DNA of 64,000 bases, taken from Octopus vulgaris. Taxonomy: Eukaryota. Positions 27,894 to 54,339 of this stretch are shown here, one piece after another. Each line of letters opens with the position of its first letter. Within the stretch, counting starts at the first letter, position 1. The DNA lies in contig OX597833.1 of the NCBI GenBank assembly GCA_951406725.2, positions 26,226,001 through 26,290,000 on the forward strand, given 5' to 3'. Below the pieces are notes generated by a model that saw only the letters and a list, made by a program, of their open reading frames with translations, was not told where the DNA came from and did no database searches. A program made the position numbers and the translations under genes.

Positions 27894-29857
27894 TTCCCTG
27901 TGATTTCAAACTTCCTGAAGCACAATATGTCGTTGTGGAATACGAATCTCCAATTATACCACTCTAATGGAGTACTTGCCTCAGAAAATATAAACATCAA
28001 CTGTGGATTTTTCAAGGTGACTCACTTTCACCTTTAATATTCTGCATAGCCCTAATACCCCTTACAAGTGAATTAAACAGAACAGGGTATGGGTATAAAA
28101 TTGCCAATAAAAAAATAAGCCATCTATTTTATATGGATGACTTAAAACTTTATGGTAAAGACAATAATGAACTTGAAGGCCTATTGCGCACCGTGAAAGC
28201 ATTCAGCGATGACATCGGGATGGAGTTTGGACTTGAGAAGTGTGCCAAGGCCACTTTCCAGAAAGGGAAAGTGAAGACCACAAATTCAGTCGTGTTAGAT
28301 GTTGACACAGTCATAAGAGAGCTTGAGCAAGAACAAACATACAAATATTTAGGGATATATGAAGGCTCTGGTATTCAGCATGCAAGCATGAAAGAGAAAA
28401 TCAGGAAGGAATGTTATAGGAGAGTTCGTGCAGTCCTGAAATCTGAACTAAATGCACGTAACAAGGTGTTAGCTATAAATTCCTTAGCAGTTCCAGTTGT
28501 TACTTATAGCTACAATGTGTTGAACTGGAATATGAGTGAAGTAAAGAATATAGATAGGAAAATACGCAAGCTGCTGAGTTGTAATAGGATGCACCACCCA
28601 AAGGCAGACGTAGATCGCCTTTACCTTCCAAGAGCCCAAGGAGGTCGAGGCATGATCCAATTTGAACTAGCTTACAAAACAACCACAATTGGACTGGCCA
28701 AATATCTCGAAATATCGAATAACTGGATGCTAAAGCTCGTGGAACATCACGAGAGACGAAAGAAGCTTCATTCTATCATAAAGGAAAGCAAAAAATTTGC
28801 TATTGATCTCGTGCAGGATACCCAAACTGAACAACCCGAGGGAAGTACGGCAACTATTGTTGCAAAGAAGGTGAAAATGATGGCAATGAAAAAAGCGCAC
28901 GAGCAATTGGCTGATAGGTGGGAGGAGAAACCTCTGCACGGCAAATATGTGACCCGCAGCAAACAAGCTGATGTTGACCTGAAGCAAACCCATCAGTGGC
29001 TACGGAGCTCAGGGCTAAAATCAGAGAGCGAAGGTTTCATCCTGGCTGCTCAAGATCAAAGCCTATTAACCCGGAACTACCAGGCCAATGTGATGAAAAA
29101 TGGAGCAGACCCAAAATGCCGATTCTGCAACGACATGATTGAAACAGTGGACCACCTAATCTCTGGATGTAAAGTCTTAGCACCAGTGGAGTATAAATTA
29201 AGACATGACAGAGTTGGCCAATATCTCCACTGGCTAATAAGTCGGCATTACAATATCAAAACTGCCGACAAGTGGTATAATCACCACCCTGAGGCTGTAA
29301 CTGAAGGAGAAAATGTAACCATTCTGTGGGACTTTCCAGTACATACAGACCGAACCATCAAGGCCAATAAACCAGATATTGTTGTGAAAGACCAAAACAA
29401 TAAAGTTTGCTTATTGATCGATATGAGCATCCCTGTGATCATAATATCTCAGCGAAAGAGTTTGACAAGCTCAGAAAATATAAAGACCTACTCATTGAAA
29501 TTGAGAAAATGTGGCATCTCAAGGCGGTTACAATACCAGTGATCGTAGGAGCACTAGGAATGATCAAGAAGGGAACCGAAAATTATATGAGAATGATCCC
29601 TGGCTTACCATCCCTGCAAGAAGTGCAAAAGATTGTCTTAACTGGTACATCACACGTATTGAGAAGAGTATTGTCGATGTGAGAACTGTTGCTGCTCATG
29701 TATTTTAATTTAACTTAAAAAAAAATTTTTTTTTAAATGAACGAACTACTGAGTTTGGTTTAATGGCCTACCAATGTATACTATGAGTTTCTTTGCCCTA
29801 GGAGTCGGGAAGACACTCGGCAAGAAATGGAAGCAAATTTGAAAGAAGAAAAAAAAG
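27894..29857 (+). mobile_element. 5'-truncated R4/Dong-clade non-LTR retrotransposon inserted in a (TAA)n microsatellite
   Basis: RT motifs QGDSLSPLIFCIAL (from 28013, in frame with 28133) and LFYMDDLKL; CCHC finger CRFCND..ETVDHLISGC; RHD; REL endonuclease KPDIVV...LIDMSIP; A-rich 3' end. (TAA)n upstream (27809-27893) and downstream (29858-29893). Confidence 0.92.
28013..29682 (+). pseudogene. Reverse transcriptase + restriction-like endonuclease ORF of the Dong-like element, frameshifted near 28010 and 29432
   Basis: ORF 28133-29542 carries the RT C-terminus, CCHC and PD..D motifs. The C-terminus (KEFDKLRKYKDLLIEIEKMW...IPVIVGALG...QKIVLTGTSHVLRRVLSM*) continues in another frame (29407-29682). 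Confidence 0.88.
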
Positions 29858-53445: not shown

Positions 53446-53541
53446 TGTATGTATTCATGTTTGTTTTTATGTTCAGTTATAATAAAAGCAATTTTGCATT
53501 AATCTGATAGGTTATTCCACGCTTTTGTAGAGTACAAATTT

Positions 53542-54270
53542 CGGATCTTTACCTTTTTTGACCGACAGATTTCAAAAATATTTTTTTGTAACTCAACACT
53601 TTGAAACTTCGGACACTGGTAGAATGTGTCATATAAAACATCTTTTACTCTTAGCGTTTTTGAGAAAAGCTTATATTAGGAAGTTATTTCACATTAAAGT
53701 TGTAATATTTCAGTAATTTCAACCAATCAATGACGTGTATTTAGCTGAATATAATTACTGCTGTCGTTTGTCAACAAGAACTGCCGGCGGTGAATATTTC
53801 GTTTGCCACTGTTATTTATGACAACCCTAACCCTAAAACCCTAACCCTCAAACCTTAACATTAACCCTAACCCTAAAACCCTAACCTTAAAGCCTTAACC
53901 CTAACTCTAAAATCCTAACCCTAACACCATAACCTCAGAACACTAACCCTAACCCTAAAACATTAAATCTAAGACCAGTACAAACGCACGAATGTTGTCA
54001 TAAATAACAGTGACAAACGAAAATTATACCGCCGATAGTTGTTGTTGACAAACAATGGCAGTAAGTTTATTCAGCTGAATACACGTCACTGATTGGTTGA
54101 AATTACCGAAATACTACAACTTTAACGTGAAATAACTTCCTAAATATAAGCTTATTTCAAAAACGGTAAGAGTAAAAGATGTGTTATATGACACATTCTA
54201 CGTGTCCGAAGTTTGAAAGTGTTCGATTACAAAAAATTTTGAAATCTGTCGGTCAAAAGGTAAACATCCC
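53542..54270. mobile_element. Fold-back non-autonomous DNA transposon with ~280-bp TIRs and telomere-like core, flanked by AAATTT
   Basis: Left TIR 53542-53825 (CGGATCTTTACC...TTTATGACAAC); right TIR 53994-54270 (GTTGTCATAAA...GGTAAACATCCC); AAATTT at 53536-53541 and 54271-54276. Confidence 0.9.
53824..53972 (-). repeat. Degenerate interstitial telomeric repeat (CCCTAA/CCCTAAAA)n
   Basis: ACCCTAACCCTAAAACCCTAACCCTCAAACCTTAACATTAACCCTAACCCTAAAACCC...; reads TTAGGG on the minus strand. Confidence 0.9.
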
Positions 54271-54339
54271 AAATTTTTAATTCTTACACAAGAATATTGT
54301 TGACAGGGACTTGGAAGTTTCGGCTAGTTAAGCCATCGT

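Follow-up and report, generated by a model that had tools for sequence, protein, structure and literature searches.

A telomere-like tract carried by a dispersed, probably Merlin-derived inverted-repeat element in Octopus vulgaris

Merlin transposons have terminal inverted repeats (arms) that range from 24 to 462 bp, GG ends and an 8- or 9-bp target duplication, and they are abundant in an octopus, with 191 sequences (PMC8101967). It is already known that many of them contain internal tandem repeats, and a role in spreading repeats has been suggested (PMC8101967). Microsatellites borne by MITEs are known as well, as in Xstir of Xenopus and the (GTCY)n MITEs of insects (PMC6947457). Short interstitial telomeric sequences are short internal TTAGGG-like runs, described as single insertions at repaired breaks (PMC6410037, PMC8537989). 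A transposon route to interstitial telomere-like DNA is given only as a possibility in the available text of the review PMC6410037. Spy transposons insert in AAATTT without a duplication (PMC4482050).

The element described here resembles each of these systems in part. With the Merlin superfamily it shares GG ends, an 8-bp duplication, arms of about 280 bp and a partner transposase of the DDE_Tnp_IS1595 type. It differs in that its repeat is telomere-like and appears to have been acquired by nesting; the string "telomer" is absent from the main text of PMC8101967. Aplysia Merlin-1 has a period-6 repeat of 39.5 copies (PMC8101967, supplementary file 5, where the table gives periods and not units) and could be an unrecognised precedent. 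Like the microsatellite-carrying MITEs, the element is short, non-coding and bounded by inverted repeats, and it spreads a simple repeat of variable length. The repeat units of those MITEs are different, however, and a telomere motif is not named for any MITE in the available text of PMC6947457. The short internal TTAGGG-like runs are a likeness to short interstitial telomeric sequences. Whereas each of the latter is a single insertion, transposition would have carried one tract to the hundreds of sites in this family, and an 8-base unit is part of that tract. The likeness to Spy consists of an AT-rich target and the AAATTT at the single site in the window; in contrast to Spy, the family produces 8-bp duplications that vary in sequence, and its partner transposase is a Merlin.

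The window is the whole stretch of 64,000 nucleotides that was analysed. The features of the element in the window are as follows, where D denotes a second element discussed below.

53535..53542, no strand: left copy of the 8-bp target-site duplication, CAAATTTC; the 8-bp signal recurs family-wide
53543..53825, plus strand: first terminal inverted repeat, about 283 bp, beginning with GGATC, from the arm alignment
53825..53960, minus strand: telomere-like tract in which TTAGGG and TTTTAGGG units are mixed, with the G-rich strand being minus; likely derived from D, nested in an ancestor
53961..53993, minus strand: short internal motif of the host element, adjoining the second arm; comparable motifs are found upstream of the Merlin ORF at L207, L212 and L214
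53994..54269, minus strand: second terminal inverted repeat, about 276 bp, ending in ATCC, from the arm alignment
54270..54277, no strand: right copy of the 8-bp target-site duplication, CAAATTTT, with one mismatch to the left copy

The register of the 8-bp duplication sets the element at 53543-54269, a length of 727 bp with GG...CC termini. An earlier note on this DNA had described a fold-back element of 729 bp with imperfect inverted repeats of about 280 bp, a degenerate CCCTAA/CCCTAAAA core and AAATTT on both flanks. The fold-back structure and its arms were confirmed, as 53536-53825 and 53994-54276 align at 87% identity across about 290 bp. Folded as single-stranded DNA, the element reached -230 kcal/mol, with a z score of -31.5 against 20 shuffles. 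The length had to be corrected by two, the outermost base on each side belonging to the target duplication. The core agrees with its description: it contains 10 perfect CCCTAA units, 3 being CCCTAAAA, with a longest perfect run of 2 units, and the rest are decayed units. A 33-bp spacer separates the tract from the second arm. AAATTT is found near both ends, but it is the centre of the 8-mer, for which CAAATTTC and CAAATTTT are alike at 7 of 8 positions. There is no second copy of the element within the 64,000-nt window, and inspection of the window revealed no host gene close to the element. The only clear coding stretch in the window is a LINE-like reverse-transcriptase frame of 524 residues at 27968-29539 (+), the family of which was judged by eye.

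The assembly comprises 2.8 billion bases with about 30 large contigs. A genome search with one arm returned 3295 first-look candidates, 40 of which were scored. The 28-base end motif had 387 exact genome matches and the tract-junction sequence had 643 when up to 2 mismatches were allowed; the reversed controls gave 0 in both cases. In unselected DNA, the background for the Merlin loci described below, 4 arm loci were found in 434,476 bases. The window element belongs to a dispersed non-coding family with several hundred copies or more. It is thus not single-copy, and the proposal of a MITE-like family that disperses telomere-like sequence is borne out by the counts of ends and tract junctions. 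In sequencing runs under four organism labels, thousands of contigs match the element, tract junction included, so the family is common to relatives; the assembly may derive from one of these runs.

The target-site duplication was evaluated on 71 end pairs from all fetched loci, in which the window was counted once and 2 spare pairings share a right end with another. As the end pairs were chosen by the GGATC motif, the independent evidence for the GG terminus is the register of the duplication. An 8-bp duplication was perfect in 28 of the 71 pairs and matched at 7 or more of 8 positions in 47, a level reached by shuffled flanks in 12 of 5000 trials. Perfect duplications of other lengths were rare (6 bp, 1/71; 7 bp, 0/71; 9 bp, 0/71). 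Some of the 24 pairs below 7/8 are wrong pairings or decayed ends. No two of the 28 perfect duplications are alike; they are 73% AT, with an A-rich start and a T-rich end. No paralogue of the window flanks, representing an empty site, was present in 1.5 Mb of fetched sequence. In one contig from run X3, position 53540 is followed directly by sequence similar to that from 54276 onward, at 23 of 29 letters, aligned by eye with a short side of 25 letters. It lends weak support to an empty site and accommodates the 8-bp and the AAATTT readings equally here. Solo arms that end at arm positions 218-269, close to the hairpin tip, were seen at L102, L106, L107, L110, L115 and L119 and may result from hairpin-driven deletion or later insertions.

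The presence of the tract across copies was assessed at 30 loci picked by the end motif alone, which represent 29 elements. The tract was found in all 15 elements whose arm reaches its inner end and in 2 partly deleted ones. The 12 elements without it are all cut or deleted before the inner end of the arm. L019, a single case outside the end-motif sample, has a full arm and no tract. L019 and L052, where a full arm is followed by other sequence, were considered as a longer form of the element and rejected, since the arm was in register in 0 of 11 relatives of the inner sequence. Among 51 copies the tract length ranged from 12 to 387 bp with a median of 79, and among 742 parsed units TTAGGG accounted for 27% and TTTTAGGG for 16%. 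These results show that the element family spreads telomere-like DNA.

Merlin transposases are abundant in the genome, with 476 candidates, and the 20 best-scoring loci among the 150 scored belong to other families with other ends. Among 40 further Merlin regions, L188 has an arm 500 bp upstream of the ORF and L199 has an arm downstream of the ORF that is 87% identical to that of L188. The 16 closest matches to the L188/L199-type ORF, from 40 scored of 206 candidates, represent 14 distinct places. An inward-facing arm lies upstream at 9 of the 14 and downstream at 3, so that at least one arm is present at 11; L209 has arms on both sides of the ORF with a decayed left end, and 3 loci are without an inward-facing arm on either side. 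The window arm (53543..53825) is 73-85% identical to the arms that adjoin Merlin transposase genes. On PF12762 (DDE_Tnp_IS1595), the L199 ORF scored 36.6 bits against a cut-off of 27, and the stop-cut L188 frame scored 26.7 bits, slightly below it. Three acidic motifs share one frame in L188 and L199 and may be the DDE triad. In an arm tree of 43 rows, which included 9 of the 35 copies of the window type (subfamily A), the arms from Merlin ORFs interleave with the MITE arms; support is modest, with stars on 9 of 40 inner branches.

At 11 of the 14 closest loci the arms point towards a Merlin (IS1595-type) transposase, so the window element is, judged from its sequence, likely a non-autonomous Merlin derivative. 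Its GG end, 8-bp duplication, arm length and shared arms all agree with this assignment. The partner with the same termini, for which the earlier note had proposed a search, encodes a Merlin and not a Spy transposase. None of the 16 Merlin loci has an intact ORF, the longest stop-free frame being 241 aa, and the 40 scored of 206 candidates included no intact transposase flanked by both arms and a target duplication. Since no ORF is intact and the A-type arms have a mean identity of 93% among themselves, the family is probably inactive now. Several further Merlin families, which differ in their ends and have open frames of at least about 300 aa, were encountered at L031-L050 and L160-L199; some of these families look young. 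Repeated partial Merlin copies are clustered at L217, L219, L221 and L223 (C15 74.47-74.51 Mb), some with a same-direction arm piece downstream. A long tandem array downstream of the L188 Merlin (L188:4500-7001) is unrelated.

The origin of the core was examined through the subfamilies, which are nested by content: A, the window type and the shortest, lies within B1, B1 within B2 and B2 within B3. The order from B3 to A is taken from this nested content and not from a rooted tree. Over 219 bp, the interior of B3 aligns at 83% with free D, namely with its left end and tract. Among 26 D left ends, 13 are at one shared host site and 13 have other flanks, and the hexamer is carried by 10 of the 13 free D left ends. 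Free D has GG...CC ends and 8-bp duplications of at least 7/8 in 4 of 5 true end pairs (one in an uninformative AG run). At L232, L231 and L207 the host site is uninterrupted and D is absent. At L199, L209 and L263, which are three dispersed places, the ORF is kept with a common breakpoint, at which it adjoins a fragment of the D left end, and the tract is absent. A search for a transposase for D found none. Taken together, the telomere-like core was likely inherited from the nested element D.

We assign a probability of roughly three in four to the reading that the element is a Merlin-moved non-coding transposon with long inverted ends and an 8-bp duplication, the core of which is a passenger from a second element inserted in its ancestor. 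A GGATC-ended Merlin would have received a single insertion of D in its inner region. A single deletion would then have taken the transposase and the right half of D and spared the tract, giving rise to B3, and further deletions would have produced B2, B1 and A, the window type. A separate deletion may have removed the tract and kept most of the ORF, as at L199, L209 and L263. The derivatives would have spread in trans during the period of transposase activity, and the tract may have been lengthened and shortened by slippage of its 6- and 8-base units. One point against this explanation is that survival of the tract through several deletions, and a CCCTAA motif in other families, are not predicted for a purely neutral passenger.

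Two such families were observed. Sister family C (L005, L011, L022, L039, L050 and L097) has arms about 75% like those of the window element and a short CCCTAA motif; 7 of its 8 pairs show 8-bp duplications, and it was the sole type seen in unselected DNA. A further small GG...CC family (L040:2707-2972, L021:3055-3221, L184:6765-6909) contains a CCCTAA motif and is flanked by duplications of 8 or 9 bp. It has 45 bp in common with family C, and the short CCCTAA motif, a separate one, is common to the two families. At L182 a Merlin is inserted inside a copy of this further family.

The tract may instead be functional in a Merlin derivative, binding telomere proteins or folding into a G-quadruplex and thereby aiding spread or affecting the host, an idea we regard as unlikely. 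It would account for the tract in 15 of 15 terminus-picked elements whose arm reaches the inner end, for its retention through the deletions from B3 to A and for the CCCTAA motif in C, D and the further GG...CC family. A four-G-run pattern, found in the window as well as in 34 of the 62 copies with a tract, points in the same direction, as do 8 sites in the window for YTAGGGTTR, the vertebrate TRF half-site. However, only 18 of 71 elements have a run of at least 3 perfect units and only 2 have a run of at least 4, TTAGGG makes up just 27% of the parsed units, and the tract-less sisters that keep an ORF were dispersed to three places. Action of the tract as a telomere-protein site, a break site or a healing site, put forward in the earlier note, is putative on these grounds. 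There is a slim chance that telomerase wrote the tract into a break while the internal deletion of the family was repaired, in the manner of vertebrate short interstitial telomeric sequences. Such insertions made by telomerase at breaks are known (PMC8537989), and the G-rich strand begins directly after a host motif ending in TTAG. The tract is nevertheless continuous with the D left end in B3 and is also present in free D copies, hence older than the junction. Furthermore, TTTTAGGG occurs 115 times in 49 tracts but only 2 times among 2229 TTAGGG units in nine long arrays. For the window family, repair by telomerase is largely refuted.

The Merlin assignment itself has competitors. hAT and P transposases also produce 8-bp duplications. 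A MULE (Phantom/foldback), hAT or P transposase could move the family with the arm-adjacent Merlin genes as bystanders, and the long arms and 8-bp duplications would fit these groups too. One solo arm is close to a MULE-like fragment (L021/L051), but a second arm is absent within 8.7 kb, so the fragment was rejected as a partner. The arm was found at 0 of 30 MULE loci, examined with 1.5 kb flanks from 66 matches, and its position and direction relative to the Merlin ORF are fixed at 11 of 14 loci, which leaves such a transposase a very slim chance. The earlier note had offered two readings of AAATTT, a 6-bp duplication of a palindromic target or a Spy-like insertion between AAA and TTT with no duplication, and had expected the flanks to prefer AAATTT. 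At the window site these and the 8-bp reading remove an identical 735 bp, and the AT-rich target with its A-rich start and T-rich end would suit them. Across the family, though, AAATTT is on both sides in only 2 of 71 end pairs, and in the second case, L114, the unequal outer bases are also duplicated (8/8). TTT directly precedes the element end in 15 of 69, a perfect 6-bp duplication is seen once against 28 for 8 bp, and those 28 all differ. The preference for AAATTT was not upheld, and the probability left to either reading is vanishingly small.

To relate the tract to the host telomeres, a survey covered contigs C1-C31 at either end, as well as 8 small contigs at their starts. Telomeric sequence was found at 4 of 62 large-contig ends: the start of C22 is pure CCCTAA, and at the three others TTAGGG runs into CCAGG. 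Two TTAGGG arrays inside C5 end at gaps and carry TTAAAA blocks. TTAAAA and CCCTGG are nanopore miscalls of the telomere repeat (PMC9414165). Since the CCAGG and TTAAAA blocks match such miscalls, the telomere unit of this genome is TTAGGG, in agreement with the earlier note; treating CCAGG as a miscall is our extension, the 5-base form not being named in the available text of PMC9414165. A switch of the telomere to CCAGG, suggested by 3 of the first 37 contig ends, was rejected as a likely nanopore miscall, given the pure CCCTAA of C22 and the interruption of TTAGGG by TTAAAA.

Several other features of these regions were recorded. Blocks of CCAGG/CCTGG and TTAAAA that extend for kilobases at or within telomere arrays (L315, L325, L337, L360, L361, L362, L364, L377) are likely miscalls kept in the assembly; at L362 a CCTGG block follows TTAGGG on the same strand, a polarity opposite to the other cases. 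The two telomere-sized arrays in C5, at about 210-219 kb and 55.055-55.068 Mb (L344, L364, L377, L362), end at 100-N gaps and are probably mis-scaffolded chromosome ends. One satellite directly inward of telomere arrays is shared by L360, L361, L337, L350, L365 and L377, and L365 has a second, decayed TTAGGG patch about 12 kb inward. An about 235-bp satellite at L374 (C29 end) and a short CCCTAA-containing unit at L330 (C6 start) are unrelated tandem arrays.

The element arm is absent at five telomere junctions and at two long inner arrays. Growth of long TTAGGG arrays from the element was also considered and rejected, as C2:47.83 Mb, C3:37.42 Mb and C5:210 kb all lack an arm. In this small sample there is therefore no sign of healing at the element. 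At the base of the C10 telomere (L360:5170-5290; about 118,220,380-118,220,490 of C10), the first ~110 bp contain three TTTTAGGG and two other tract-type variants. This block has a 43-bp exact match to the L125 tract; as matches to other arrays reach 38 bp, it is unusual in unit make-up and not in match length. In this single case, tract and telomere may truly have exchanged sequence, or the block may be due to chance or to a polishing artefact. More broadly, hundreds to thousands of Merlin-borne tracts might make up a genome-wide pool of telomere-like sites to which telomere proteins bind and which exchange sequence with telomeres, with the C10 block as an exchange footprint or as the source of the tract. 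We consider this distinctly unlikely.

A literature search by title and start of abstract, with subscription papers and Repbase outside its range, returned no inverted-repeat transposon that carries telomere repeats. Telomeres are not mentioned in the main text of a recent octopus repeat annotation (PMC13282606), the supplements and repeat library of which may already include the family. Within the titles and abstracts searched, a telomere-like passenger apparently handed between transposons by nesting did not appear. The family would provide a concrete case of the route named in the review: one tract that nesting transferred from transposon to transposon and that was later multiplied to at least 643 sites. 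The tract-bearing and tract-less sister elements offer a built-in control for the binding of telomere proteins by short impure TTAGGG runs, and the tract copies may confound TTAGGG read counts or probes in Octopus vulgaris. On sequence grounds, the element would be an ordinary Merlin derivative with an unusual passenger.
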